Positions 7,386-57,650 of a stretch of 64,000 bases of DNA are shown here, piece after piece; positions within the stretch are counted from its first letter, which is position 1; every line of letters begins with the position of its first letter. Origin of the DNA: a virus. Location: IMG/VR virus record IMGVR_UViG_3300045988_176738, positions 32,001 to 96,000 of that record; one strand, written 5' to 3'. The notes under the pieces are model-generated. The model saw only the letters and a list, made by a program, of their open reading frames with translations, was not told where the DNA came from and ran no database searches. Both the position numbers and the translations under genes were made by a program.

Positions 7386-8396
7386 TTGGCAAGAAAACAA
7401 GAAGTATTAGATTTAACCAATCAATATTATGAAAATGCCAATGAAGAAAATAAAAGAATTGCAAATGAGTATTTAGAAAATGCTACGCATTTATCACCAG
7501 AAAGTTTAAAACAATATAAATCTGCGGCAAGAGTTTGGATTTCTTATATTAATAAATTTTTAAATAATAAAAACTTTAGAGATATTAAGCCTATGGAATT
7601 CCAGCGTTATCAAAATTGGCTTTATAATCAAGGAATATATGAAGCTAATATAAAGATGAAACGCAGTTTAGTGAGCAATTTAAACGAATATATGATTTTA
7701 TATTATGGTGATGAAGAAGAATATAAAACATTTCGTAATTTTGTAACTCAAGCAATTAAAGTGCCAGTAACAGGAAAAAAATATCAAAAAGAGCCATTAA
7801 CCATAGAAGAATATGAAAATTTATGTAAATATTTAGAAGAAAAAAAAGAATGGCAAAAACTTGCTTATTTGAAATTTACTTATGTATCAGGTTGTAGAAA
7901 GCGTGAATCTCTTAGTTTATTAAAGGAAGTTGTAAATTATAAACCAATAGAAAAAATGACAAAAGTAAAAGATGAAAATGGTGTGGAACATACAGTACCT
8001 ATAAAAAAGTATAAAACAAATCCAATTAAATGTAAAGGCAAAAAAGGAGATGCTCCTAGAAAATTAACTTTTGATGAAGATACTTTACATTATTTAAAAA
8101 AATGGCTTGCTGTGAGAGGCGAAGATGATTGTCCTTATATGTTTGTTGTTGGTAGAGGCGAAGGTGCTCATCAACCGAATGTAGCAACTCCTAACAATTG
8201 GTGTAAAGAGTTTGAACAATTTATTGGAAGAAGATTGCATCCACACCTTATTAGGTCTAGTCGTGCAACTGCATTAAAACTTAGTGGAAAAAGTATTGAA
8301 GCAATTCAAAAACTTCTTGGTCATAAATCTTCTGAAACAACAAAGATTTATATAGTTGAAGATGATGACGATGAAGAAGATGAATTATTTGTTTAA
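7386..8396 (+). CDS. int: tyrosine recombinase / phage integrase
   Basis: The catalytic core is present: CRKRES, HPHLIRSSRAT (HxxR) and KIYIVED (Tyr). It has a TTG start (MARKQEV) and an acidic C-terminal tail. Confidence 0.85.
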   Translation: MARKQEVLDLTNQYYENANEENKRIANEYLENATHLSPESLKQYKSAARVWISYINKFLNNKNFRDIKPMEFQRYQNWLYNQGIYEANIKMKRSLVSNLNEYMILYYGDEEEYKTFRNFVTQAIKVPVTGKKYQKEPLTIEEYENLCKYLEEKKEWQKLAYLKFTYVSGCRKRESLSLLKEVVNYKPIEKMTKVKDENGVEHTVPIKKYKTNPIKCKGKKGDAPRKLTFDEDTLHYLKKWLAVRGEDDCPYMFVVGRGEGAHQPNVATPNNWCKEFEQFIGRRLHPHLIRSSRATALKLSGKSIEAIQKLLGHKSSETTKIYIVEDDDDEEDELFV

Positions 8397-9494: not shown

Positions 9495-12400
9495 GTGGCT
9501 AATGAATATCAAATTAAGTTAAAAGCAGCTTTAGATGATTCTTCAATTAAGAAAGCTATTCAAAAAATTAACGATAAACAAACTATTGATTTTAAAGTTA
9601 AAGGCGATAAAGAAATATTAACTGTAACTAATAAAGTCAAAGATAATATGGGAAAAATAACTACCGAAGTTGAAAAATTTCAAAGAACTGCTGGTGGAAG
9701 TTTTGAATCTGTAGCAAGGTCTACAAAAACTGTATCAGGTGCAACAGATACATTGGCTGACCATTTTAAAAATGCAACAAATAATGTAACAGAATTTATG
9801 GAAGCTTTTGGATTATTTACTATAGCTCAAAAAGCAGTTGAAGAAATGGTTTCTGCGGTAAAAGATATGGACGATGCTTTAACTGAATATAAAAAGGTTT
9901 CAGATTTAACTGGAGCAAGTTTAGATTCTTTTATTCAAAAAGCAACTACAATTGGTGAAACTGTTGCTAGAACAAGTACCGAAATGGTAGAAGGTGCTAC
10001 TGAATTTAAAAAGTCTGGTTATAGTGATGAAGATTCACTTGAATTAGCAAGAATAGCGGCTTAATGATATAGGTCGAATATATAGGAATATATATAAAGA
10101 ATAGGGTGAATTGCTGGAAAACCCTTAGAGATTAACAAACTAAAACATAGTTAGTAATAACAAATGTGAATGTTTAAAAATTGTTAATATTGGGCAATCA
10201 GCAGCTAAGCAACTATTGAAATGTAGTTGAAAGTTCAACGACTATCGAAAGCAATCAGAAATTGATAAATGTAACTATATAAAATATAGAATAAGCTACT
10301 AAGTAGACGAAGCGAGTAGAGTAGAGCCAGGTGGTAGGTTTTGAATGAAATTAGTTCATATAAATCCTTTAAATCAAAGTGCCCTATACCTAATAAAAGG
10401 TAAAGATGTAGTCTTAGCTTATATGAAAATATAAGATATTAACACAATTAAAGAAATTTATGTTAATATAAACTGGAATATCAAAATGTTGCAGATGAAC
10501 AAATGAGTGCAGGAGACGCTGCTAATTTTATTATCGCTCAAATGAAAGCTTTTAATATTGAAGCAGGTAATGCTGAACATATAATTGATGCGGTTTTTAT
10601 GAGCTGCATGTAAAAAACAGGGTTAATTGCGGGAAAGTCTTTAGAGTTTTATATACCAAACAGTAATAGTAATATTATTGTGGCTTAATTAATTATTAAG
10701 GTATGGTAAAAAGTATAAAAATTAGATAATCCGCAGCTAAGCAACTATTGAAATATAGTTGAAAGTTCATCGACTATCGAAAGCAATCAGAAAAACTGAT
10801 AAATGTAACTATAGAAATATAGAATAAGCTACTAAGTAGACGAAGTGAGTAGAGTATATGGAAGTGCTATCCATAGAAATTCCCTGCCCTATAAAAATTT
10901 ATAGGTGAAGATATAGTCAATTCTTATATGAAAATATAAGTGATTAAATAAATTATAATAAAATGGAGTAATATGAAAAACAAAATAGATACACAATATG
11001 TTAAAAATTATTTAAGTAAATATTCAAAAACGGAACTTTTAGATGAGTATATTAATTATAAAAAAAAAATGAAGTTTAAATGCGAATGTGGTAATATCTT
11101 TTATAGAAATTTTAGTAATTTATTACGAAATAATTATTGTAAATGTAAAGATTGTACTACAAAAATAAGAGTTGATAATAGAAAGTTAAAAATTGAAGAA
11201 GTGGATAAAATTATAAAAGAACATGGATTGATAAGAATGGGCGAATTCATAAATACTCGCAATAAAATCCTCTGTATGAATAAAGATGGTTTTTTAGGAA
11301 AAATAAATATAACTAATTTAAAAAAAAATAAAATGTTTACAGTATTATCACCAAAATTTGACCCAGAATCAACGATTTATAACTCAAATAAAATAATTAA
11401 TAATAAAGGATGTAAAACTAAAGTTTTAAAATTTTTAAATAACGAATCTCTTCAAAATAGTAAAGTTTTGTGCAAATGTGAATGTGGAAATATATACGAT
11501 GTCAAACTTTCAAGTTTAATATATAACAATGCCTATAGGTGTAGAAGTTGTTCTAAAAATGAATCTAGTCTTGAAAAAAAAGTAGATTCTTTTTTAGTTT
11601 CAAATAATATATTATTTGAAAAGCAAAAAAGATTTAATGATTGTAAAGATAAAAATACACTTCCTTTTGATTTTTATATTCCATCTATGAACATATGTAT
11701 TGAGGTAGATGGTAAACAACATTATACAGTAATAAATTTTAGTAATAATTTTGAAATATCTAAATTACAATTTGAAAAAATAAAAAAACATGATATAATA
11801 AAAAATGAATATTGTAAACAAAAAAATATAAAACTAGTAAGAATTTCTTATTTAGAAATTCAAAATGATGAATATATAAAAATTTTAAATAATTTATTTA
11901 ATCTATCATAATTTGCAACTATGATATAATATAAAAGAAATGAAGTATCAAATAATTATGCTGTTTCTAGTGCGGATTTAGCAAACAATTTAGGCATTGT
12001 AAGTTCAACTATGGCGGCTGGTGATACAACTTTGGAACAAACCTTAGGATTGATGACGGGAATCGTTGAGATAACTAGAGATGCTTCAAGAGCAGCAAAT
12101 GCTTTGAAAACAATTGGACAAAGAATAAGAACAGTTTCTGAAGATGGAGAAAGCTATGTCGCTAAATTACAAAGTTCTTTTGATAAATATGGAATAACAG
12201 TAGACATAGTTAATAGAAAAACAGGTGAAATGGAATCAACCTACAATATTTTAAAAGGTATTGCTGCACAATGGGATAATTTAAATGATGCTCAAAAACA
12301 AGAAATTGGTGAATTAGCCGCTGGTAAACAAAGAATTACAGACTTTAACAATATAGAGTCCGTTCCAAGAAATTGGTTCGTAAAATAACATATCTAATTG

Positions 12401-42512: not shown

Positions 42513-43060
42513 ACATAATTATATATTTGTTTAATATTATTTATTTCAGTTCCATTCCAATTGTTATTCCAATCGGCATTTTCCCTATTTCTAAATAATA
42601 TTTTTAAACTAGCATTACTATCATAAAGATTTTTTTGATTGTCATCTATAAATACCCAATCCTTTAAATCTAATGATGATTTATCTTCTATACCTTCAAG
42701 AACTCCTATAAAATTTAAATTTATTTTTTTTATAAGAATATTATTTTTTATAAAATCTTTTTTTAATTGTAAATTTTTTGAACTTCCAGCACTATATATA
42801 ATTAAAGGGTATTTTTTTGATAAATCTTCTAATGTTTCAATTGTATTTGGTTTAAAAGTTAATCTTTGAAACAATCTTTTATCATTCCAAACATTATTTA
42901 TTTGTTCAAAAGTAAGTGTAGGATAAGCATCTTTAAAATCCCACCTATTAACATCACTTGCTTTTGCATGAAGATTATAATCTTCATTAAGTATAGATAC
43001 AATTGCCTCTATACTATTTACTAACACTTCATCGAAGTCGAATGCAATTCCTTTATACAT
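42509..43060 (-). CDS. 5'(3')-deoxyribonucleotidase-like HAD hydrolase (NT5C family)
   Basis: GIAFDFDEVL is the DxDxV motif I, and IIYSAGSSK is motif II-like. Confidence 0.55.
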   Translation of the reverse strand: MYKGIAFDFDEVLVNSIEAIVSILNEDYNLHAKASDVNRWDFKDAYPTLTFEQINNVWNDKRLFQRLTFKPNTIETLEDLSKKYPLIIYSAGSSKNLQLKKDFIKNNILIKKINLNFIGVLEGIEDKSSLDLKDWVFIDDNQKNLYDSNASLKILFRNRENADWNNNWNGTEINNIKQIYNYV

Positions 43061-44045
43061 AAGACACTTCCTTTCTAAATGGATTAAATGTATTTATATT
43101 TTCTTGTATTCTTCTTTGAACTGTTGTTTTAGCATATATACGAGTTGTCATTATACTTTCATGTCCTAAATTTTCTTGTACTACATCAAGTGGAACACCA
43201 TTATTTAATGCAAATGTTGCATAAAAATGTCTTAATGTATGAGCTGTCACATTTTTTTCTTTGACATTTATTCCGGCTTTTTCTGCAATTTTCTTTAAAC
43301 TATTATTAAAATTACTATCGTTCATTTGACATCCAGTTTCACTAAGAAATATTAAATCTTTATTTTTTTCTATTTTATTTAAATAATCTTCATAATTTTT
43401 AAATCCTTTATATTTTACAGTTTTTCTTAAAGAATTAAATGTAGTTCGAGATAAAACAATAGGTTGTTTTCTTTCATTATTTATATAATCCTCAAGCATT
43501 TCAGCTACTTCATCATGCAATATTACATATCTTTCTTTACTACCTTTACCCTTTATTTTAAACACATTTCCAGTAAAGTCAGATATTCTTAAAGACATAA
43601 GTTCGCTAAAACGCATCCCCGTAGTTGTAAATAATGTTAATATAGTATTATATTTTTTTCTGTCTTTTATAACATCAAACATCTTCATAAATTCTTCTTC
43701 TGTTGGAATTTCTTTAATTTTTTTTGGAACTTTAACTCTTACAGATTTTGTAATTATATTCTTTTCGAGTATTTCTTCATCTACTAAAAATCTAAAGAAA
43801 CTTCTTATAACTGCTAATTTAGTATTTATACTGCTTAAAGAATTTCCGTTAGATAAAAGATATTCTTTATATTTTATAATATCTTCTTGCTTTAAATTTT
43901 TTATATTTTCTAAATCATTAATTTGTGTTATATGAAAAAACTCCTTTAAAAATCCTTTATAATAAGATAATGTATTAGTTGGATTTTCTCTATTTGTCTC
44001 AATACATCTATAAAATAAATTTAGCTCTCTTAATAATTCATTCAT
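43053..44045 (-). CDS. tyrosine recombinase (XerC/D-like) under an early promoter
   Basis: GMRFSEL (R), HTLRHFYAT (HxxRH) and TTRIYAKT (Tyr) are present. Confidence 0.85.
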   Translation of the reverse strand: MNELLRELNLFYRCIETNRENPTNTLSYYKGFLKEFFHITQINDLENIKNLKQEDIIKYKEYLLSNGNSLSSINTKLAVIRSFFRFLVDEEILEKNIITKSVRVKVPKKIKEIPTEEEFMKMFDVIKDRKKYNTILTLFTTTGMRFSELMSLRISDFTGNVFKIKGKGSKERYVILHDEVAEMLEDYINNERKQPIVLSRTTFNSLRKTVKYKGFKNYEDYLNKIEKNKDLIFLSETGCQMNDSNFNNSLKKIAEKAGINVKEKNVTAHTLRHFYATFALNNGVPLDVVQENLGHESIMTTRIYAKTTVQRRIQENINTFNPFRKEVSYV

Positions 44046-44147: not shown

Positions 44148-44471
44148 TTATTCTTTAGGATAATCGGAGTATTTTATAATCTCATCTGCATTGAATAATT
44201 CTTTTAAATAAGGAATACTGTCTTGACAAAAATCATCAACAGCAACTACTTTTTTGCCATATTCATCATAATAAGAACAAATGAATTTTGTAGTATTGCA
44301 ATCCATAAATATTTTTAATTTATTTATAAAATCATTTTCTTCTAAAAAAAATAAATCACCAAAAAATCTTTCAAAATTACATATTAATTGACCAAATCTC
44401 CAATCTGGAACTTCAGACCATATTTTCTCAATCTCTTCTAAAAATGGTTTTATTCTTGCTTTATCTCTCAT
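44148..44471 (-). CDS. hypothetical protein
   Basis: A 107-aa ORF. Confidence 0.35.
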   Translation of the reverse strand: MRDKARIKPFLEEIEKIWSEVPDWRFGQLICNFERFFGDLFFLEENDFINKLKIFMDCNTTKFICSYYDEYGKKVVAVDDFCQDSIPYLKELFNADEIIKYSDYPKE

Positions 44472-44928
44472 ATTCTTCTTCCTTTCTTTTATATATTGAA
44501 TTATTAGCTTTTTTTCTTAAATACATAAGGCGATAATATTCTTTTTCACTAAGTTTTGAATTATCAAGTGCAGGTATTGTAATAATTTCTGAATTAATAC
44601 TATCTAAATCTATTTTTTGCATAATAATTCCATTTTCATTAATTTCCAACCTCGCTAAATCTAATCTATATTTAAAATCTTTTAAAATTTGATTAATTTC
44701 TCTTTGAGTTTTTTCGCTTTGTTCATGTAACCATTGATGATTATAATTTGCAAGATTTGCACCATTTTCAATAGATGTTTCACCACCATCGCACCTTCTT
44801 TTTAAATGATGATAACTGATTGTCCTGTCTAATGTTTTTGCTTTCCTAATACGAATACCCGCTCTTTCCATAAAGCAACCATCACCATAAATTTCTTTTA
44901 GTAGGTTTCTTGCTTCTCTATTCTTCAT
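44461..44928 (-). CDS. HNH nuclease
   Basis: SYHHLKRRCDGGETSIENGANLANYNHQWLH is an HNH motif. Confidence 0.6.
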   Translation of the reverse strand: MKNREARNLLKEIYGDGCFMERAGIRIRKAKTLDRTISYHHLKRRCDGGETSIENGANLANYNHQWLHEQSEKTQREINQILKDFKYRLDLARLEINENGIIMQKIDLDSINSEIITIPALDNSKLSEKEYYRLMYLRKKANNSIYKRKEEEYER

Positions 44929-44983
44929 ACTATCACCACCTTTCTTATCTTTTGTAATATGTAAGGCGGTTTAACCGCCGATA

Positions 44984-45214
44984 TTAATTACCTTTTATCA
45001 TCTTTGTAGCATATAATCTAGCGTCATTTGTTAAAATATCTGTTGAATCATCTAATGAAACTGTTTCACCTCTCAATTGAATTGTATAATTTCCTTCTAA
45101 TGAAAATCCAGCTAATTCAAAAACATCTTTTATTGTCTCAACATCATCTGTAATAGCTACTCTTTTAACTTCTCCAGGTAAAACTCCAACACTAATTTCT
45201 AATACATTATCCAT
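44984..45214 (-). CDS. ubiquitin-like beta-grasp protein (ThiS/MoaD-like), C-terminus ..KGN
   Basis: 76 aa with the pattern V..ITDDVETIKDVFELAG...TVSLDDSTDILTNDARLYATKMIKGN, which resembles MoaD/ThiS (..dGD.v.i.p.v.GG). It has its own promoter and lies next to E1/JAB/E2. Confidence 0.5.
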   Translation of the reverse strand: MDNVLEISVGVLPGEVKRVAITDDVETIKDVFELAGFSLEGNYTIQLRGETVSLDDSTDILTNDARLYATKMIKGN

Positions 45215-45292
45215 AAAAAAACCTCCTAAAATTTTTAAATATTTATATAAAGTCTATTGACTATATATCAAGTTTGTTTTATTTATTATTTT

Positions 45293-45345
45293 TTTCTACA
45301 TTATCTATTATACACTATAAATTAAAATTTGTCAAGTATTTTTTA
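45293..45345. repeat. 53-bp perfect direct repeat (copy 2)
   Basis: Identical to 44060-44112. Confidence 0.8.
45307..45335 (-). promoter_or_regulatory. consensus sigma70 promoter copy (– strand)
   Basis: Identical to the copy at 44074-44102. Confidence 0.65.
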
Positions 45346-45352
45346 ATTTTTT

Positions 45353-46030
45353 TTAAATTTCAAATTTTTGTTTAAAACTATCCATATTTCTATAATTTAT
45401 TATAATCTCATTATTATTTATAATATCATCATTATTTAAAAAATCTATTAATTGCCAAACTGCTTGTGAAGCAACGCTCATTGCTGTAGGTAATAATGTT
45501 AAAGAAGTTCCACAAAATGAAGTTTCAGCAATATCATCATCATAAAATTTTTGAGAATAATTTTTCAAACAAGTATAATCGGTTGGACTGATAGTATAAA
45601 TCATTGCTTGATCAACTCCCATTCTTGTTTCAATTAAAAGTCTAACATTTGGATTATTTTTTATACAATTTTCATAAATCTCTTTTCTTGATTTCATAGT
45701 GTCTGTTAATAAAAATACAATCCCTTCAAGATTTGATTTTGCGTTACATTCTTCTATTTTTTTTGTAACATCAATACCCTCATCATTATACTTTTTCATT
45801 TTTTCTGCAATAGCATCAACTTTAAATTTTCCAACATCACATATTTCATAATTTTGATTTGGAAGATTATGTTCTTCCACTTTATCAAAATCATATAAAG
45901 TTATATTATTAAACCCCATTTTTGCTAAAATTGTTGCGACCCAACTCCCAGTAGCACCACAACCTATTATAGTTATTTTATCCTTTAAATTGTAAGGGTT
46001 TATAATTTCTCTATGTCTTGAAATATCCAT
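45353..46030 (-). CDS. E1-like ThiF/MoeB-family adenylyltransferase
   Basis: ITIIGCGATGSWVATILAKMG is the GxGxxG Rossmann motif. LYDFDKVEEHNLPNQ matches the ThiF signature (D.D.ve.sNL.RQ). Confidence 0.75.
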   Translation of the reverse strand: MDISRHREIINPYNLKDKITIIGCGATGSWVATILAKMGFNNITLYDFDKVEEHNLPNQNYEICDVGKFKVDAIAEKMKKYNDEGIDVTKKIEECNAKSNLEGIVFLLTDTMKSRKEIYENCIKNNPNVRLLIETRMGVDQAMIYTISPTDYTCLKNYSQKFYDDDIAETSFCGTSLTLLPTAMSVASQAVWQLIDFLNNDDIINNNEIIINYRNMDSFKQKFEI

Positions 46031-46047
46031 TTTTTACCTCCTAAATT

Positions 46048-46758
46048 TTATGAATTTTCCATATTATTTATTTTGTCCATATAATAATTATCATATCCTT
46101 CGTAATCATAATCCCAGTCAGCATATTCATCATTTAGTTTTTCTGCTAAATCTTTTACATTTTCTTTTTTTTTATTTTTATTATTCATATAATAAGATGA
46201 ATCTCCATATGGCATATAGTTATTCTTAAAATAAGTATTTGGAACTTCATATACTTTTTCCTTAACCTTTTCTGCAAGCTCTTTTTTTATTTCTTCATTT
46301 TCATCACCTTCTATTACAGGTGTCATTTCCGTAACAAAGATATTTTTATCTTTATCGAATAGACTTAAATTTATATTATCATTTTTATTCATAATTAATC
46401 TTATGAAAAAATCATTATTTGAAATAAATTCTTCAAATTGTGTATCATCTTGACTGCTTGGTGCTGTACTCATATTTACATGTGAATGACCCCAAAATTT
46501 TATATCATTAGGTTTTCCAGATTTTTCTCTTTCTAAATATAAATTTATAATTCCTTCTGGTGAAAGCTCGCAAGTTGTACCATTTACTTCTTGTTCTACT
46601 AAATAAACATCTGTAACAATATAAGTTGATTCATTTTTTGTTACTGAACCTAACCACCCAACTTCTTTATCACTATACTTTACATAATATTTCATTTTTT
46701 CATACGCTTTTTTTGACAAAATTATTTTTGGTTCATCTTTCAATAATTTAATATTCAT
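46048..46758 (-). CDS. JAB/MPN+ (JAMM) metalloprotease, deubiquitinase-like
   Basis: SDKEVGWLGS holds the upstream Glu. WGHSHVNMSTAPSSQD is the HxHx7Sx2D JAMM motif. The tail is N/Y/D-rich and low-complexity. Confidence 0.8.
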   Translation of the reverse strand: MNIKLLKDEPKIILSKKAYEKMKYYVKYSDKEVGWLGSVTKNESTYIVTDVYLVEQEVNGTTCELSPEGIINLYLEREKSGKPNDIKFWGHSHVNMSTAPSSQDDTQFEEFISNNDFFIRLIMNKNDNINLSLFDKDKNIFVTEMTPVIEGDENEEIKKELAEKVKEKVYEVPNTYFKNNYMPYGDSSYYMNNKNKKKENVKDLAEKLNDEYADWDYDYEGYDNYYMDKINNMENS

Positions 46759-46768
46759 ATTTTACCTC

Positions 46769-47167
46769 CTAAAATAATAATTCTTCAATATTTTTATAAG
46801 AAATTTGAGTTTGTTCAAATTTTTCTCCAGTTTCATAATTTATAAGGCTGTCTCCATCTTCAATATATAAATCCCAAGATATAACATATTTCCCAGCTGA
46901 ATCTAATAAATTTACAGATTGTAAATATTGAATACATAAATCTATTAACAAATATAAATCATTATTAGATATTGCATAACCCATTAATTCCGATAAATCA
47001 CCTAAACAAGCTATACCATCCCCATCAACATGAGGTGCATTACAATTTTTGCCCCAATAACTTCTTCTTTTATTATTCAAATTAAAAAATTTTACATTCA
47101 TATCATTTAAGTTTATTTTTATATCAAATTTTCCTAAATAAAATTTATATTCTTTATCAGATTCCAT
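46769..47167 (-). CDS. E2-like (UBC-fold) ubiquitin-conjugating enzyme homologue
   Basis: NAPHVDGDGIACLGDL parallels the eukaryotic E2 active site HPNVxxxGxICLDIL. The catalytic Cys would sit in IACLG. Confidence 0.55.
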   Translation of the reverse strand: MESDKEYKFYLGKFDIKINLNDMNVKFFNLNNKRRSYWGKNCNAPHVDGDGIACLGDLSELMGYAISNNDLYLLIDLCIQYLQSVNLLDSAGKYVISWDLYIEDGDSLINYETGEKFEQTQISYKNIEELLF

Positions 47168-47372
47168 CTTTTTTCTATTATCATATTTTAAATCACTAGA
47201 AACCCAGTATTCCCTATCTATTAATTCATTATATCTCTGTTTATCAAAATGAGTTACAAATAAATCTTTAGTAAGAACATGAACTATAGAACCATCATTT
47301 TTTACTTCATCTACATATACATTATCAAGTAAAATATCGTTTAAGGTTTTATTTTCTATTGCTTCTAAATCT

Positions 47373-48056
47373 TCATTTAACAGTTTTATTTTTTTTATTA
47401 TATGCTTTTAAATTTTTAGTATAACTTTGCAATTCTCTTTTATAATAATCAATATCTGATATTAATTCAGTTTTTTTCTTATTATAAAAAGATTTTAATG
47501 TTTCACCAAAAATCTTTTTATTTTTTTCTTGAATTTGATTTTCATTATTATTTTGTTCGGATTCTTTAAAACAAAAAACCCCTGGATATTGTTTCGAGAA
47601 AAAATCTAAAGTTTCTAAAATTAAGTTTAAAACTTTTTTTGTTCTTTCTATTCGTGTAAAACTTGTTAAAAATGTAAAATATATTATATTTCTAGCTTTA
47701 TCAAAAATTGCAATAGGAATATCATTTTTTTCAAAAACACATTCTGTATCTTTATAATCAGGTGCTATCATTGAAAATGATTCTGCACCTATACCTAATT
47801 TTTTTAAATCATTTTCAACACCAGATGTTATAAAATGATTGTTATCATATAAACCAAAAGTAATTTTTAAATTTTCACTATCTAGATCTAATTGGCTTAC
47901 TGTCTCGTTTCTTACATAAAATTTTATGCCTATGTTCTCTGAATACTTAAAAAAATATTTAAGTTTTTCACAAAAAACCTTTTCTATATTCCTTATAGCT
48001 TCAGTTTGTCCTTTAAATAACATGTTCTTAAATGAATCATCAAAATAAATATTCAT
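47373..48056 (-). CDS. hypothetical protein, first gene of the E2-JAB-E1 operon
   Basis: 227 aa. It ends in a Lys-rich tail encoded by an A8 run. Confidence 0.4.
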   Translation of the reverse strand: MNIYFDDSFKNMLFKGQTEAIRNIEKVFCEKLKYFFKYSENIGIKFYVRNETVSQLDLDSENLKITFGLYDNNHFITSGVENDLKKLGIGAESFSMIAPDYKDTECVFEKNDIPIAIFDKARNIIYFTFLTSFTRIERTKKVLNLILETLDFFSKQYPGVFCFKESEQNNNENQIQEKNKKIFGETLKSFYNKKKTELISDIDYYKRELQSYTKNLKAYNKKNKTVK

Positions 48057-48083
48057 AAATTGTTCCTCCTTTTATACTAATAA

Positions 48084-48112
48084 TTATACACTATAAATTT
48101 AAAATTGTCAAG
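48084..48112 (-). promoter_or_regulatory. consensus sigma70 promoter copy (– strand)
   Basis: The reverse complement reads cttgacaattttaaatttatagtgtataat. Confidence 0.65.
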
Positions 48113-48515: not shown

Positions 48516-48855
48516 CTATACTTATATATAAATTTTCCCATTCGCCATTTATTAAATAAATTTGTTGCTCATTACTTATTTTTTTTGCACCATCAAGCCA
48601 ATCTAATATTAAATCATATTCATATTCATCTAATTGAGAATCAAGATTATTATCATATACTGAAATAATATAAGTTTCTACACCAAAATAATCACCTGAA
48701 ATTATTTTTTCAAAAAATACATCTAATCCAATTCCTATATTATCATACATATCTCCAACATTTTCACCATCAATATAAACTGTTCGACTGCCGCCAACAT
48801 TATAAAATACTATTATTTTCAAAGTTTTATTCGTAATTATCACCTCGAATATCAT
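48493..48855 (-). CDS. hypothetical protein
   Basis: A 120-aa ORF. Confidence 0.35.
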   Translation of the reverse strand: MIFEVIITNKTLKIIVFYNVGGSRTVYIDGENVGDMYDNIGIGLDVFFEKIISGDYFGVETYIISVYDNNLDSQLDEYEYDLILDWLDGAKKISNEQQIYLINGEWENLYISIGDENKNK

Positions 48856-49684
48856 CTATGAATTTTTTCTTTAAAATATCATATTTAAGATTATCTAATA
48901 AATCAATACCTTCTTTATTAATAATATCTTCTTCTGTTTTATTTTTTTCTTTTATAGCATAAGTTAAAGAATCATATTGTTCACACATTTTTTTTGCAAT
49001 ATCTAAATCCATATATTTTTTCCCATCTAAAGTTAGATTCTTTTTTATATTAATAAGCTCTTCTTTTAAATCTGATTGATAGCATTTTTCTAATGGCTCG
49101 CCTGATACAAATTTATTTATAAATTCACAAAGGCGAATACAATGTGAAAGTTGTTTTCCATCAAATCCATATTTATCAATTTTCTTTTTTATTTTTGGAT
49201 ATGGATGACAAAGAGCTTTTACTTTTTCTTTACTCATACCAGAAATACATCTTAAAAATTGATTTCTATTTATATTCGCTACTTTATCTCGATTATCAAG
49301 AAGTTCTTGAAATTCTTCCATATAACGCATATCTATTATTCGTAATTTAGTATAAAGCAATTCTATATAACTAATATTCATTTTTTTGAAACAATCAAAC
49401 ATTAATCGAATATCTTTTATATCTATTTGGTCACCATTTTTTAACTCAACCGTTGTACTTATTGGTGTTTTTCCTTTTACAAAATCCTCAAAACTTGGAA
49501 GTACTATTGCTTTTGTATCAACATCTGAATCTTCATATTCTAAGCCATAATTAAAACTTCCTTGATGTGCTATGAATACGACATTATAACCATTCTTTTT
49601 TAAATAATTATAATGTTCTTTTATTCTATTCATTACTTCTATTTTACTAAGTATCTTTTTTTTCTTCATCATATCCTCCTTCAT
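48827..49684 (-). CDS. Pol-beta-superfamily nucleotidyltransferase (GS-x10-DxD)
   Basis: HQGSFNYGLEYEDSDVDTKAIV is the minimal NTase / CD-NTase-like active-site motif. The remainder is helical. Confidence 0.55.
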   Translation of the reverse strand: MKEDMMKKKKILSKIEVMNRIKEHYNYLKKNGYNVVFIAHQGSFNYGLEYEDSDVDTKAIVLPSFEDFVKGKTPISTTVELKNGDQIDIKDIRLMFDCFKKMNISYIELLYTKLRIIDMRYMEEFQELLDNRDKVANINRNQFLRCISGMSKEKVKALCHPYPKIKKKIDKYGFDGKQLSHCIRLCEFINKFVSGEPLEKCYQSDLKEELINIKKNLTLDGKKYMDLDIAKKMCEQYDSLTYAIKEKNKTEEDIINKEGIDLLDNLKYDILKKKFIDDIRGDNYE

Positions 49685-50540
49685 TTAAAAGATGTAAACA
49701 AGTATCTACATCTTCCATTGTAAATCCACAAGAAGAATTAACCTTTACAAAATTATTATGAAAAATATTCTCAATATCAAAAGATTCATCATCTATTATA
49801 AGAAAATTATAGTTAACTTTATCTTTTAAAAATTCTTTTATTTCTAAACCTCTATTTTGATTTATATATGGGGTTTTGTCTGAAATATTTAAACCATATT
49901 GTGCTAATCGTGAATTTGCAATAACCATATCTTCTTTTCTCAATCTCCAAGTTGAAGAAAGAATAATATTTACATTATATCTTCTTTGTTTTAAATCATT
50001 ACATAAATACATTAATGCTTCGATATTTCTATTGTCAAAAGGTACATCGCTACAAAAGAATGGCTCTTTACATCTTTGATAACAAAGTAAAGTATAATTA
50101 TCATTATTTAATACACCATCAATATCTAAAAAAATATAAAATATTTTTAAATCCTTTTCAATACTTTTCAAACAATTGTTTTCCATCTCTTGACATTCTT
50201 CATAAGATATTTCTTTATTTACGGTAGTATCTCTCCCCAAATATTTATACCAGCTTATTTTTATATCTTTATATTTAAAATTATAAGGTTGTTCATATTC
50301 TTCATCCCAACTATAAGCTTCTACTTCAAACACATCATTTTTATATTTACTTCCAGAATTCGAAAATGGATTTCCGAAAACATTATCATATTTAAAATAA
50401 TGATTTAATGTTGTACTAATTTTTTTTAAGGTGTCCATTAAATAATCAGGACATTGATATATTTGATTTTTATTTGTATTAAATGTTAAATTCCCTAATT
50501 CTAAACTTGCATTTTTCATATTAAAACCATAAAGCACCAA
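49647..50540 (-). CDS. protein with C-terminal HAD-type phosphatase domain (Pnk-phosphatase-like)
   Basis: YIFLDIDGVLN is the DxDGxL motif I. ILSSTWR is motif II-like. Confidence 0.5.
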   Translation of the reverse strand: MVLYGFNMKNASLELGNLTFNTNKNQIYQCPDYLMDTLKKISTTLNHYFKYDNVFGNPFSNSGSKYKNDVFEVEAYSWDEEYEQPYNFKYKDIKISWYKYLGRDTTVNKEISYEECQEMENNCLKSIEKDLKIFYIFLDIDGVLNNDNYTLLCYQRCKEPFFCSDVPFDNRNIEALMYLCNDLKQRRYNVNIILSSTWRLRKEDMVIANSRLAQYGLNISDKTPYINQNRGLEIKEFLKDKVNYNFLIIDDESFDIENIFHNNFVKVNSSCGFTMEDVDTCLHLLNEGGYDEEKKDT

Positions 50541-56299: not shown

Positions 56300-57650
56300 T
56301 TCCTATAAAAAACATATTTTACCTCCTTTTATTCATAAAAAGTTGACGCTCCCCCAAGCTTTAGCTCAGGGGATTCTTGCTTCACCCATTACGGTTATTA
56401 TCACACCTTTTGGCAGTTTTCCCACAATGTCCACAAGCTTTTAGGTTCGGTATCGCCCATACCTACCATATTTTTAGATTACTAACAATCTTAATCCTTC
56501 TTGTTTTATATTCTTAGCTGCATTTATATCTCTATCTATATTGGTTGTTCCACAATTAGGACAATCCCAATATCTGATAGTTAAGTCCTTTAGTATTGGA
56601 TTTTGAAAACCACAGCAATTACATATCTGACTTGATGGAAACCATTTATCGACTTTTATAAGATTTCCACCTCGTTCTTGTAATTTGTAAGCTAACATAT
56701 CCAAAAACATTCCATATCCATTATCTAATGTAGCTTTGCCATTTCCAAAACCTTTATTAGATATAACCCTTATATTAAGACTTTCTACACATACATAAGC
56801 ATACTGTTTGGCTATCGCAGTAGACTGTTTATGCAGATAATCCTTTCTCTGATTTGCTATATGTCTATGAATTTTAGCAACCTTTTTCTGCTGTTTATAA
56901 TAGTTCCTGCTACCAATTACTTTATTACGAAGTTTTCTTTGCTGTTTAGCAAGATTATTTGCTGACAGTTTGTAATAATGAGGCATATTAGCAACTACCC
57001 CTGTGTCGCTTACATACAACCCATCTGACTTATAATCTAACCCAGTTGTGTTGTCCTCGGTAGGGGTAACTTGTACTGGTTCTTCTTCTATAATCTCAAA
57101 AAGAATAGATGCCTGATAGGTTTCATCCCTGTTTTGAGTAATTGTAGCTGACTTAATTCGTAAACATCTTGTATCAAGGCTGATTTTAGCTTTTACTTTA
57201 CCAACTTTCGGGAGTTTGACATAATTTTCGCCAACTTCGATATTGTTATTCGTAAAGTTTGTAGTATATGACTTCTTTGCTTTATGTTTATTCTTATACT
57301 TTGGATGCTTTCCGAGATGTTTAAACATCCTCTGGTAACCATCTTCCAAGTGATATATTGCATTTGTCAAAGCAAATTTATCTACTTCTTTAAGCCAAGC
57401 GTATTCTGTTTTAAGATTATGGTTACAATACAAGTTCATATCAAATTTACTGAGGTGACTTTCTTTATTTTTATATCGTTCTTCCTGAACGGAAAGTATC
57501 TGGTTATACACAAACCTTGTACATCCAAAAGTCTTTTGGAAAAGTTCTGCTTGTTTTTTATTTGGATATAATCTGTAAACAATAGCTCTATTGGTTTTAA
57601 TCATATCAAGCTCTCCTTTCTGCCGACTTAGGTCGGCTAATATTTTGTTG
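56300..57650 (-). mobile_element. IS200/IS605-family tnpB-only element, with a left-end hairpin and a putative 3' omega-RNA region
   Basis: It has a TnpB ORF, and an LE-like hairpin gccgacttaggtcggc at 57622-57637 just upstream of tnpB. A GC-richer structured segment (56335-56470) lies immediately 3' of the tnpB stop, which is where omega/reRNA maps. Local GC is higher than the surrounding sequence. Confidence 0.55.
56474..57604 (-). CDS. tnpB: TnpB (IS605 OrfB-family RuvC-like RNA-guided nuclease)
   Basis: The N-terminus AIVYRLYPNKKQAELFQKTFGCTRFVYNQ is the OrfB HTH. The C-terminus CNCCGFQN..WDCPNCGTTNIDRDINAAKNI carries the Zn finger and RuvC-III. Confidence 0.8.
   Translation of the reverse strand: MIKTNRAIVYRLYPNKKQAELFQKTFGCTRFVYNQILSVQEERYKNKESHLSKFDMNLYCNHNLKTEYAWLKEVDKFALTNAIYHLEDGYQRMFKHLGKHPKYKNKHKAKKSYTTNFTNNNIEVGENYVKLPKVGKVKAKISLDTRCLRIKSATITQNRDETYQASILFEIIEEEPVQVTPTEDNTTGLDYKSDGLYVSDTGVVANMPHYYKLSANNLAKQQRKLRNKVIGSRNYYKQQKKVAKIHRHIANQRKDYLHKQSTAIAKQYAYVCVESLNIRVISNKGFGNGKATLDNGYGMFLDMLAYKLQERGGNLIKVDKWFPSSQICNCCGFQNPILKDLTIRYWDCPNCGTTNIDRDINAAKNIKQEGLRLLVI

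Follow-up and report, generated by a model that had tools for sequence, protein, structure and literature searches.

A predicted ubiquitin-like conjugation cassette with a capped modifier in the early arm of a temperate gut phage

Why would a phage carry an E1, an E2-like protein, a JAB protease, and a ubiquitin-like protein (Ubl) side by side, and do the four work together? The question is raised by positions 44984 to 48056 (minus strand) of a 64,000-nucleotide stretch of viral DNA (IMG/VR record IMGVR_UViG_3300045988_176738), referred to here as the window. Our preferred answer, to which we give a probability of roughly 0.55, is a phage-encoded Ubl conjugation cascade that is expressed early from the phage's own promoters and is pro-viral; its target and role are not established.

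RESULTS

The cassette is carried by a temperate gut phage. The window encodes a tape-measure protein, tail proteins, a DnaB-like helicase/primase, an integrase (43053-44045), and a DnaE that is 54% identical to that of phiCD211/c-st phages; the integrase and a candidate att site are the basis for calling the phage temperate. When we checked open reading frames and motifs, all were located exactly where a preliminary description had placed them (Table 1), and its core reading, a full set of E1, E2-like protein, JAB, and beta-grasp Ubl on a phage, was supported. The composition is also as undescribed as had been claimed, in that we found no description of what is a large phage and prophage family.

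Table 1. Features of the cassette and its flanks in the window
Feature	Position	Strand	Description
107-aa ORF	44148-44471	-	Holds candidate attP core 44247-44269
HNH-like nuclease	44461-44928	-	155 aa; only a weak IscB-HNH match, 0.011
GC-rich hairpin	44965-44979		GGCGGTTTAACCGCC; directly after Ubl stop codon
Ubl, beta-grasp	44984-45214	-	76 aa; C terminus ...KMIKG75-N76
Promoter-like element, second copy	45307-45335	-	Upstream of Ubl gene; perfect TTGACA-N17-TATAAT
Minimal E1, ThiF/MoeB-type adenylation domain	45353-46030	-	225 aa; Pfam ThiF 9.2e-27
JAB/JAMM metalloprotease	46048-46758	-	236 aa; exact JAMM HxHx7Sx2D motif
E2-like gene	46769-48056	-	428 aa when intact
Downstream E2-like ORF	46769-47167	-	132 aa; C-terminal two-thirds of UBC-like domain only
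Upstream fragment of broken E2-like gene	47373-48056	-	227 aa; last 9 residues out of frame
A8 homopolymer (T8 on plus strand)	47389-47396	-	One extra A puts E2-like gene out of frame
Promoter-like element	48083-48111	-	TTGACAATTTTAAATTTATAGTGTATAAT; upstream of E2-like gene; 12/12 sigma-70 consensus

We established the identity and fold of each of the four proteins. The smallest is a beta-grasp protein; failure to adopt this fold had been named in advance as a ground for rejecting the Ubl assignment. No PADLOC, Pfam, or PHROG model matched it; members of its family score above the Pfam SAMP2 cutoff, and one carries the JGI label "sulfur carrier protein ThiS." The conserved Gly, capped in the window by Asn76, is obligatorily capped across the family: none of the ~117 Ubl family proteins is Gly-terminal, and the next residue is Asn in ~80% and Ala in ~17%. 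In relatives, what follows the Gly ranges from a single Asn or Ala or a short run of residues to another Ubl repeat or an entire tail domain, and each of the di-Ubl and Ubl-tail precursors has a K-G-N junction. The sole relative in which a protein at the Ubl position ends in GG is a Xanthomonas jumbo phage, and it has no JAB within 4 kb.

The claim of a JAMM metalloprotease rests on HSHVNMSTAPSSQD, an exact motif match that supplies catalytic residues H91, H93, S101, and D104, with a conserved Glu region upstream. These motif residues are invariant in 21 homologues. The protein matched the PADLOC JAB model at 5.9e-5 and Pfam Prok-JAB at 0.045, the latter below cutoff. The E1 contains GCGATGS, DFDKVEEHNLPNQ, and TDTMKSR; the first two, together with the Pfam match, bear out its proposed ThiF/MoeB type. 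Its Cys173 (SFCG; codon 45512-45514) occupies a ThiF-Cys184-like position and is conserved in 19 of 19 aligned homologues. Matches to the NCBIfam ThiF, MoeB, UbaA (1e-6), and PRTRC-ThiF models all fell below the respective cutoffs, and PDB matches were to ThiF-type proteins, MccB, TcdA, MoeB, and UBA5. The PADLOC E1-E2 models, which are of CBASS type only, matched just the N-terminal nucleotide-binding part (1.5e-13), as did NCBIfam 6A-MBL cap2_3 (1.2e-14, below cutoff).

The E2-like protein required a correction. An unknown 227-aa first gene and a 132-aa E2 had been described as separate, but they belong to a single 428-aa gene of which the 227-aa part is the N-terminal half. The two frames overlap over 47373-47407, at the A8 run, and the reading frame of the 132-aa ORF extends a further 70 codons upstream with neither a stop nor a start codon. 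Because it covers only part of the UBC-like domain, the alignment of which begins ~56 residues upstream of its ATG, the 132-aa ORF is probably not functional alone. Once one A is removed from the run, the product matches the homologue P0004 in length and domain layout; P0004 is 96% identical to our query (P0001) across the last 220 residues. This layout comprises an N-terminal alpha/beta domain (~1-160), a coiled coil (~184-235), and a C-terminal UBC-like domain (~241-410). The motif APHVDGDGIACLGDL lies within the 132-aa ORF; catalytic Cys350 is encoded at 47006-47008, and the [H/A]-P-H motif reads A-P-H in the window, with Ala in place of the first His of HPN. The Cys at the catalytic position is invariant. 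The E2-like family has 976 cluster representatives. Lack of a UBC fold or of this cysteine would have refuted the preliminary description; both are present. Support from scores is only moderate, as a Foldseek search of the PDB returned no significant match, the Pfam UQ_con and Prok-E2 profiles did not match, and the family has no match among Pfam, PHROG, PADLOC, or PDB-sequence entries.

Seven related contigs (L004, L005, L007, L009, L010, L012, and L015) have A7 where the window has A8, and a single intact 428-aa gene is called in six contigs. Upstream of the A-run by 60 nt, L004 has a TCA-to-TGA stop, and the homologue P0002 lacks ~135 nt in the same linker. The frameshift here and the lesions in these two relatives count against a pro-viral reading and could mean that the E2-like gene is dispensable.

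We demonstrated linkage of the genes in 24 related loci with an E2-like gene, mostly on viral contigs and including two bacterial assemblies. JAB adjoins the E2-like gene in all 24, E1 is next in 23, and the Ubl was found wherever the flank permits. The same four proteins are co-located throughout, which excludes chance assembly. The usual order is Ubl-E2-JAB-E1, upstream of phage SSB, DnaB, DnaG, and DnaE, and distant lineages keep this position, even where E2-like identity is only 20-35%. A distant version is carried by Xanthomonas jumbo phages that were isolated on a host. In Dehalobacter and Tissierellia genome assemblies, the cassette has ordinary cellular genes as neighbors and precedes an element-borne DnaB/DnaG/DnaE set, an arrangement that looks like a prophage end. 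Among neighbor genes scanned or with precomputed Pfam labels, we saw no CapH/CapP- or BrxR-type regulators. The neighborhoods examined were also free of rhodanese domains, cysteine desulfurases, sulfurtransferases, and biosynthetic partners; MoaD/ThiS-type sulfur partners had been proposed as a possible refutation of conjugation.

In the window, the cassette sits in the early arm beneath two copies of the phage's repeated promoter-like element, which is 29 nt long, is present in 10 near-identical copies against 0.1 expected by chance, and is common to other early phage genes. The proposal that the Ubl has its own consensus promoter was confirmed (Table 1). The hairpin after the Ubl gene has no clear T-run after it on the minus strand and is possibly a weak terminator or RNA-stability element. 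Beyond it, the operon had been taken to include the HNH gene and a small ORF of 107 aa, but neither belongs to the conserved cassette; both are confined to the window's close relatives and contig L006. The candidate attP core shares 21 identical nt with a Kineothrix sp. MSJ-39 gene, at that gene's 5' end, and is supported by a junction with bacterial DNA in contig L013. In the prophage state, the cassette is at the extreme end of the element, adjoining att. This location, under sigma-70 consensus promoters, speaks against a pro-viral reading; prophage ends near att are a typical place for defence and lysogenic-conversion genes. A hint of CBASS drawn from a neighboring Pol-beta NTase was dropped because the NTase, which is outside the cassette core, is of the RlaP/RNA-repair type and paired with HAD_SAK_2, and is not a CBASS cyclase.

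DISCUSSION

What we propose about the chemical steps, the sequence of transfers, and a pro-viral role is all inferred, without biochemical evidence. The Ubl would be made as an inert precursor, and the JAB protease would strip Asn76 to expose Gly75; it would probably also reverse conjugates. The minimal E1, probably as a homodimer, would adenylate the Gly carboxylate with ATP, and its Cys173 likely takes the Ubl as a thioester before handing it to Cys350 of the E2-like protein. There, the coiled coil and N-terminal domain may do the E3-like job of picking the target, and the Ubl would be attached to a target lysine. The target could be a host or phage protein whose modification aids phage multiplication; we favor this because linkage to phage replication modules is constant.

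With the E2-like gene frameshifted by one A, the cascade would be off in this genome, barring a sequencing error at the extra base or slippage that bypasses it. It is possible, though we doubt it, that the frameshift is real, no E2-like protein is made, and the cassette here is a decaying, non-functional remnant. Three independent lesions in one region (the window's A8 against A7 in seven relatives, the L004 stop, and the P0002 deletion) point that way. However, no error is commoner in assembly or sequencing than a one-base change in homopolymer length, the remaining cassette genes are intact, the two E2-like halves otherwise match intact relatives at 96-97% identity, and the gene is whole in six contigs. 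We consider it unlikely that the same enzymes and chemistry instead serve defence, as a prophage-borne, Bil-like tagging of superinfecting phage proteins (e.g., tail) that protects the lysogen. Bil, with the same four parts, is proven anti-phage (PMC10557695; bioRxiv 2023.09.04.556158) and shares its gene order with distant relatives of this cassette; the phage is temperate, the promoters at its prophage end could fire in a lysogen, and the Dehalobacter and Tissierellia loci look like prophage ends. Replication-module synteny across such divergent E2-like proteins, by contrast, suggests a core phage function more than swappable cargo, and the host-isolated jumbo phages, the promoter element common to early genes, and the failure to see regulators typical of bacterial Ubl defence operons also weigh against defence.

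Very improbable, in our judgment, is a ThiS/MoaD-type system that conjugates no protein, in which the Ubl thiocarboxylate would be a donor for thio-modification of tRNA, DNA, or a cofactor and the JAB would only trim the carrier. JAB enzymes do trim sulfur carriers in Mec+/CysO and QbsD/QbsE. ThiF and MoeB are the best named matches of the E1, one family member bears the ThiS label, and there is precedent for carriers that have additional residues at the C terminus and are trimmed by a JAB (Iyer et al. 2006, PMC1779556). Yet the ThiF/MoeB equivalog scores are all far below cutoffs, sulfur-pathway partners were absent from the neighborhoods examined, and an E2-like protein with an invariant Cys, for which sulfur pathways have no need, is always there. 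Moreover, the Ubl ends in K-G rather than G-G, and its poly-Ubl and Ubl-tail precursors resemble ubiquitin genes, not sulfur carriers.

The conjugation cascade that we prefer has partial counterparts elsewhere. Like archaeal sampylation (SAMP1/2, UbaA, HvJAMM1) and the eukaryotic UFM1 pathway (pro-UFM1, UBA5, UFC1, UfSP), the cassette has a small MoeB/UBA5-like E1 with its catalytic Cys in the crossover region. Sampylation also shares the JAMM partner and the SAMP2-like Ubl but lacks an E2. UFM1, too, is made as a precursor whose short C-terminal extension has to be cut off, but there the protease is a cysteine enzyme and the E2 is a different one (UFC1). We know of no viral sampylation or UFM1 system.

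BilABCD (type I/II Bil) shares several traits with the phage set: separate Ubl, E2, JAB deubiquitinase, and E1 proteins, the order seen in distant relatives, the absence of an E3 gene, and a Ubl Gly capped by one residue; pre-processing of this cap by the JAB is shown experimentally for E. aridi BilA/BilC (Gly97-Ala98; PMC10557695). It differs in its E1: BilD combines an inactive and an active adenylation domain with a CYS domain, while the phage E1 is a single adenylation domain. In Bil E2s, the canonical His is missing and one farther downstream serves instead (PMC1779556, PMC10557695), whereas the phage protein keeps P-H at the HPN position and adds an N-terminal domain and coiled coil; the phage cassette also adjoins replication genes, without CapH/CapP. 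The characterized bacterial relatives (Bil and type II CBASS) are anti-phage, an observation against the pro-viral reading.

Type II CBASS Cap2/Cap3, 6A-MBL, and Bub likewise place E1, E2, and JAB chemistry on mobile elements. Cap2, unlike the minimal phage E1, is an E2-E1 fusion that conjugates CD-NTase, and the cyclase and effector of CBASS are absent here. Bub works through Ser/Tyr oxyesters, with its proteins fused and with a DUF6527 protease (PMC11601596), in contrast to the separate phage proteins with conserved Cys in E1 and E2-like protein. The head-to-tail di-Ubl and Ubl-tail forms recall polyubiquitin and Ub-ribosomal fusions in needing a protease cut, here at K-G-N ends, although the phage Ubl has no sequence relationship to eukaryotic ubiquitin beyond the fold. 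In lambda-like phages, a Ubl (TAPI) is likewise accompanied by a JAB (TAPK) (PMC1779556), but that pair comes without E1 or E2 and lies in the tail module rather than the early arm.

Gene structure of the cassette

All ORFs and motifs listed in the preliminary description were found in place, and its reading of the cassette as a ubiquitin-type set of E1, E2-like, JAB, and ubiquitin-like (Ubl) proteins is supported. The gene structure, however, had to be corrected, as five ORFs make up four genes. The E2-like protein had been placed in a 132-amino-acid (aa) ORF, preceded by a separate 227-aa first gene of unknown function. The only close relatives of the 132-aa ORF in the databases are longer (214 to 220 aa). 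Upstream of its ATG, the frame of the ORF continues for another 70 codons without a stop or a possible start codon, and at a run of eight A residues (A8) it overlaps the last part of the 227-aa ORF. With one A deleted from this run, the two frames join to encode a single 428-aa protein. An exhaustive HMMER search recovered an E2-like relative of exactly this length (P0004), whose C-terminal 220 residues are 96% identical to the query (P0001), and a single 428-aa gene was called on six related contigs. Because the ORFs join and intact 428-aa relatives exist, the 227-aa ORF encodes the E2-like protein's N-terminal half.

The run is A8 in the window versus A7 in seven related contigs. The window copy of the E2-like gene carries a +1 frameshift, in which the extra A may be either a true mutation or an artifact of sequencing. 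Programmed frameshifting at the run was considered and rejected as unlikely, since the seven A7 relatives are in frame. Within the E2-like gene, this linker region carries a different lesion in each of three sources: the one in the window, a TCA-to-TGA nonsense codon in a related locus (L004, at about position 626), 60 nucleotides upstream of the A-run site, and the loss of about 135 nucleotides between two A-rich repeats in the E2-like relative P0002. These could be assembly errors, recurrent inactivation, or phase variation.

Coordinates of features in the window (unless another locus is named)
Feature	Position	Strand	Remarks
Structural arm	1-23455	+	Tail tape-measure, tail, and tail-fibre proteins
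Second integrase-like gene and large HNH homing-endonuclease gene	7386-8396, 10973-11911	+	Within the structural arm
Replication genes		-	DnaB-like helicase/primase, DnaE-type polymerase
Other early-arm genes		-	Sak, SSB, exonuclease, DNA methylase, dUTPase, pentapeptide protein, TnpB, RNA-repair pair
Tyrosine integrase	43053-44045	-	
Candidate attP core	44247-44269; L013 1046-1068; L034 3000-3020		Within 107-aa ORF, beside integrase
Promoter 5' of Ubl gene	45307-45335	-	Perfect TTGACA-N17-TATAAT
E1	45353-46030	-	Pfam ThiF, 9.2e-27
JAB	46048-46758	-	Exact JAMM motif H91-x-H93-x7-S101-x2-D104
E2-like gene	46769-48056	-	
A-run in E2-like gene	47389-47396		
Promoter 5' of E2-like (first) gene	48083-48111	-	Perfect TTGACA-N17-TATAAT
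29-nt element, copies	3029, 4062	+	
29-nt element, copies	33185, 39325, 44074, 45307, 48083, 50991, 52542, 59077	-	
RlaP/HAD_SAK_2 pair	48827-50540	-	Immediately upstream of cassette
TnpB/IS605 OrfB-like gene	56474-57604	-	Early arm
Tad2-like gene and RtcB	L006 11488-11742 and 11774-13003		A few kb from the L006 cassette
MIB_HERC2/SH3-like genes	L023 8040-9149; L024 5023-5871; L114 13857-14699		After E1 in distant relatives

The E2-like protein

Motif and fold evidence combined make the E2 assignment well supported. The core of the family alignment, [H]-P-H-V-x3-G-x2-C-L-G, is invariant and is followed by L-x-S-x-N-x2-D-x-A-G. The His-to-Cys spacing of HPHVxxxGxxC equals that of HPNINSNGSIC in UbcH5, with the Cys about 10 residues past the HPN position. 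The HPN tripeptide itself reads H-P-H in the family, with an invariant His at the Asn position, and A-P-H in the window clade. We aligned the family by hhalign to four canonical E2s, of which the sequence of UBE2D2 alone was checked against the PDB. The alignment (probability 81%, E value of 1.2e-5, 115 columns) places HPH over HPN, Cys350 over the catalytic Cys85 of UBE2D2, and the D-x-A-G block over PNPDDPL. With Cys350 also invariant across 60 homologues, the earlier proposal of an E2-like protein with a catalytic Cys is supported.

Other searches were empty. No Pfam family, including UQ_con and Prok-E2_A to Prok-E2_E, matched the window ORFs or any of the 60 family members, and PHROG, PADLOC, and NCBIfam searches likewise found nothing for both window halves. 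Against PDB sequence profiles, the family gave only spurious matches to coiled-coil and zinc-finger proteins, and Foldseek found nothing significant for the E2-like model in the PDB. The E2-like region does meet the criterion for a UBC fold, a beta-meander followed by helices, but without a significant Foldseek match we grade the fold evidence as moderate. The N-terminal domain has a weak likeness to class-I glutamine-amidotransferase (GATase1)-like folds, and conserved catalytic residues are absent from it in the family alignment.

JAB, E1, and the capped Ubl

The JAB, previously read as a JAMM metalloprotease, has the exact HxHx7Sx2D motif of that class, with the residues of H91-S-H93-x7-S101-x2-D104 invariant in 21 homologues. 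It matches the PADLOC model JAB PDLC00890 over residues 7 to 122 (5.9e-5) and falls below the cutoff for Pfam Prok-JAB (14.1 bits; cutoff, 25). The E1 is of ThiF/MoeB type, as first described, scoring 94.1 bits against Pfam ThiF (cutoff, 28.1) over residues 18 to 223, and its single ThiF domain spans the whole 225-aa protein. The GxGxxG and Asp/Arg ATP-Mg motifs are conserved (GCGATGS, the D of LLTDT, and R115). Cys173 (S-x-C-G), in the crossover region, is conserved in 19/19 homologues; its equivalence to ThiF Cys184 or UBA5 Cys250 is inferred from position, with no structural test. The E1 has sequence matches to MoeB, ThiF, UbaA, and UBA5, and in these and in its size, it resembles the small single-domain E1s, unlike BilD and Cap2. 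Small single-domain E1s act as homodimers.

The 76-aa protein is a Ubl with a beta-grasp fold, in keeping with the original assignment: its model, built with 60 homologues, has a pLDDT of 88 and the topology beta-beta-alpha-beta-beta-beta, and two members of its family pass the Pfam SAMP2 cutoff. No match to the Ubl was found in Pfam, NCBIfam, PHROGs, or PADLOC. As these four collections contain no model for this E2-like protein or this Ubl, both are likely to stay annotated as hypothetical.

The C-terminal Gly of the Ubl is invariant, and among about 117 family proteins it is never the last residue. At least one residue always lies beyond it, Asn in about 80% and Ala in about 17%, and then 0 to 5 more. 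Several relatives have two head-to-tail Ubl repeats, or repeats plus a 135- to 260-aa tail, with the same K-G-N junction at the end of each repeat; such genes provide a case of polyubiquitin-like precursors in prokaryotic viruses. The presence of the JAB tracks the Gly cap, as the sole relative with a GG-ending protein at the Ubl position, from jumbo phages, has no JAB within 4 kb. The Ubl HMM does not match this GG-ending protein, and its status as a Ubl is our own reading. Exposure of the Gly by the JAB is inferred; experiments on the Bil system of E. aridi offer a precedent, in that the JAB BilC must trim Gly97-Ala98 before the E1 acts (PMC10557695). Since MccB is the second-best PDB match of the E1, an MccB-like reaction on the C-terminal Asn was considered; we rejected it because the roughly 17% of the family ending in K-G-A leave the Gly, not the Asn, as the invariant residue.

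Distribution and conserved unit

At an E value of <=1e-3, a library clustered at 50% identity yielded 976 representatives of the E2-like family; members of the Ubl family fall into more than 120 clusters. We examined 24 loci: 11 came from IMG/VR, one from a Dehalobacter genome, one from a Tissierellia MAG, and the others from metagenomes. For the locus scan, a 60-sequence alignment (A2) was too divergent, and a closer subset (A3) gave results. The JAB directly follows the E2-like gene in 24/24 loci, the E1 is next in line in 23/24, and the Ubl was found wherever the contig extends far enough. The order is E2-JAB-E1-Ubl in the window clade and Ubl-E2-JAB-E1, as four separate genes, in distant relatives (L021 to L033 and L114 to L116). 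The HNH nuclease gene and the 107-aa ORF, which had been counted as parts of the operon, adjoin the cassette only in close relatives of the window and in a 46%-identity relative (L006), and this distribution led us to reject them as members.

In a distant lineage, the cassette lies upstream of an early module encoding an SH3-like (MIB_HERC2) protein, an unknown protein, SSB, DnaB, DnaG, and DnaE. The MIB_HERC2/SH3-like domain of the gene after E1 scores just below the Pfam cutoff (best, 4.7e-8); elsewhere, the domain is a feature of eukaryotic E3 ligases. Directly downstream of E1, a small HTH protein is encoded in other loci (L028, L030, L031, and L023). Jumbo phages of Xanthomonas and Erwinia have a more distant version, consisting of the GG-ending protein, an 892-aa E2-like protein, and an E1. 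Neither blastn with the cassette nor tblastn with the proteins P0004 and P0041 gave a match in 50,697 phage genomes; IMG/VR pattern scans with single E1 and E2-like proteins and a scan of GTDB genomes with P0004 found none.

Flavobacterium FpV4-type and crAss-like phages have homologous E1 (1e-37 and 4e-34) and JAB (8e-4 and 1e-6) proteins. The E2-like HMM does not match their protein at the E2 position and so gives no support for FpV4 gp52 and crAss gp028 as family members, despite their homologous neighbors. At these loci (L001, FpV4 gp50 to gp53; L002, crAss-like cr85_1 gp027 to gp030), genes annotated as "thiamine biosynthesis ThiF" are the E1 homologues beside the JAB homologues. The protein at the E2 position has YMHSH...C[LI]G; in the protein encoded upstream, KSGG or KSGA lies about 85 residues in, and a long tail extends beyond it. 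The two loci may hold a second unrecognized phage Ubl system in replication modules, with the identities of E2 and Ubl unverified.

Phage, promoters, and integration site

The window has a G+C content of about 25% and two divergent arms. Its tail genes, replication genes, and integrase together identify a large temperate siphovirus-like phage with the cassette in the early arm. The DnaE-type polymerase is 54% identical to the counterparts in Clostridioides phages phiCD211 and c-st, and near-identical contigs of 105 to 110 kb come from human-gut metagenomes.

The consensus promoter reported for the Ubl gene is present, and the first gene of the cassette has a second. Both are among ten near-identical copies in the window (0.1 expected by chance) of a 29-nucleotide element, TTGACAAwTTTyAATTTATAGTGTATAAT, in which a perfect -35/-10 pair encloses a conserved spacer. 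This places the two cassette sites in the phage's own promoter type; the elements look like a promoter family of the phage, and the spacer possibly holds a regulator site.

The other landmark is the candidate attP core. In a contig found in two samples (L013), the phage 107-aa ORF is fused to Lachnospiraceae DNA exactly at this core, and an FAD-oxidoreductase gene of Kineothrix sp. MSJ-39 begins with the same 21 nucleotides; no prophage occupies the site there. The junction and the Kineothrix match suggest the host and the integration site. In the integrated prophage, the cassette is located at the end of the element.

Comparison with known systems

The closest system is Bil, which shares the four parts, the gene order of relatives, and the capped Gly with the cassette. 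It differs in its E1: BilD combines an inactive and an active adenylation domain with a CYS domain (PMC10557695), whereas the cassette E1 is a single ThiF domain. Membership in Bil also fails because the cassette E2-like protein and Ubl have no sequence-profile match. In type II CBASS, Cap2 is an E2-E1 fusion accompanied by a CD-NTase and effector, while the cassette has separate E2-like and E1 proteins, and PADLOC found no CBASS cyclase or effector around it. The adjacent Pol-beta nucleotidyltransferase, earlier taken as a hint of CBASS, is of the RNA-repair type (Pfam RlaP, PHROG 388) and is paired with a HAD_SAK_2 protein, so this link was rejected. Bub works through oxyesters on a Ser of the E2 and a Tyr of the E1, with fused proteins and a DUF6527 protease (PMC11601596). 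The cassette has instead an invariant Cys at the E2 position and a conserved E1 Cys, and DUF6527 had no match in the neighborhoods examined. Sampylation works without an E2, and the lambda TAPI/TAPK pair is without E1 or E2, both unlike the cassette.

To our knowledge, all characterized prokaryotic Ubl conjugation systems (type II CBASS, Bil, Bub, and 6A-MBL) are host owned and interpreted as defence against phages; in the present case, it is a virus that has the full cascade. The preliminary description knew of no characterized phage-borne system of this composition, and we found none described in the full-text literature, including Iyer 2006, the Bil and Bub papers, a jumbo-phage survey, and a January 2026 defence review, with subscription-only papers outside our scope. 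Among systems of this known kind, the cassette is set apart by being carried by a virus, by having an E2 family of its own and a minimal E1, and by Ubl precursors that are always capped or made of repeats.

Proposed mechanism and role

The scheme that follows starts from what we observed of protein identity, residue conservation, gene linkage, and the Gly cap, and all of its chemistry is inferred. The pro-Ubl would be inert as made, and the JAB would cut off Asn76. The E1 would then adenylate Gly75, probably form a thioester at Cys173, and pass the Ubl on to Cys350 of the E2-like protein. The coiled coil of the latter (dimerization) and its N-terminal domain may pick the target in place of an E3, a lysine would be modified, and the JAB could perhaps reverse the mark.

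We lean towards a role that serves the phage, given the linkage to the replication module across very divergent phages, the phage's own early promoter element driving the cassette, the lack of any host-type defence regulators seen, and the distant version in jumbo phages. The main rival is that the cassette is a prophage-borne, Bil-like defence protecting the lysogen, a reading supported by its position at the end of the integrated prophage, marked by the L013 junction. A sulfur-carrier pathway, in which the Ubl and E1 would act as ThiS/MoaD- and ThiF/MoeB-type proteins, is unlikely: ThiS and MoaD have a GG terminus, where the cassette Ubl has K-G-N; no rhodanese, desulfurase, or biosynthetic partner was found in the neighborhoods examined; the E2-like Cys protein is always present; poly-Ubl precursors exist; and the NCBIfam ThiF/MoeB equivalog scores of the E1 are far under the cutoffs.

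The most far-reaching interpretation still compatible with the data, to which we give a probability of roughly 0.4, is that of an undescribed ubiquitination system of tailed phages of anaerobic Firmicutes and, distantly, of some jumbo phages. It would comprise a Ubl precursor that is capped or made of repeats, a JAB that licenses it, a minimal E1, and E2 proteins of a new family with their own target-recognition domain, and, tied to the replication module, it would modify host or viral proteins in infection. If so, it is a viral counterpart of bacterial Bil, CBASS, and Bub that acts for the other side of the arms race. If the cassette conjugates, phages tag proteins posttranslationally with their own Ubl, and the targets, as well as effects on replication, on blocking of defence, or on exclusion of rivals, become testable. 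It would also offer a compact system for E2 specificity, consisting of a 225-aa E1 and an E2 that incorporates a recognition module, without any E3. In annotation, phage "ThiF thiamine biosynthesis" genes of the cassette type should be corrected to E1 enzymes of Ubl cassettes.

Neighboring genes

The RlaP-type nucleotidyltransferase and the HAD_SAK_2 ("Swiss army knife RNA repair") protein stay syntenic with the cassette among relatives and are probably an RNA-repair counter-defence. Near the cassette of L006, a Tad2-like (anti-Thoeris) gene and RtcB are consistent with an accessory counter-defence region. In the window, the structural arm contains another integrase-like gene as well as a large gene for an HNH homing endonuclease, and the early arm has a TnpB/IS605 OrfB-like gene with Cas12f1-like TNB, HTH_OrfB_IS605, and OrfB_IS605 domains, where the local G+C content rises to as much as 0.30.
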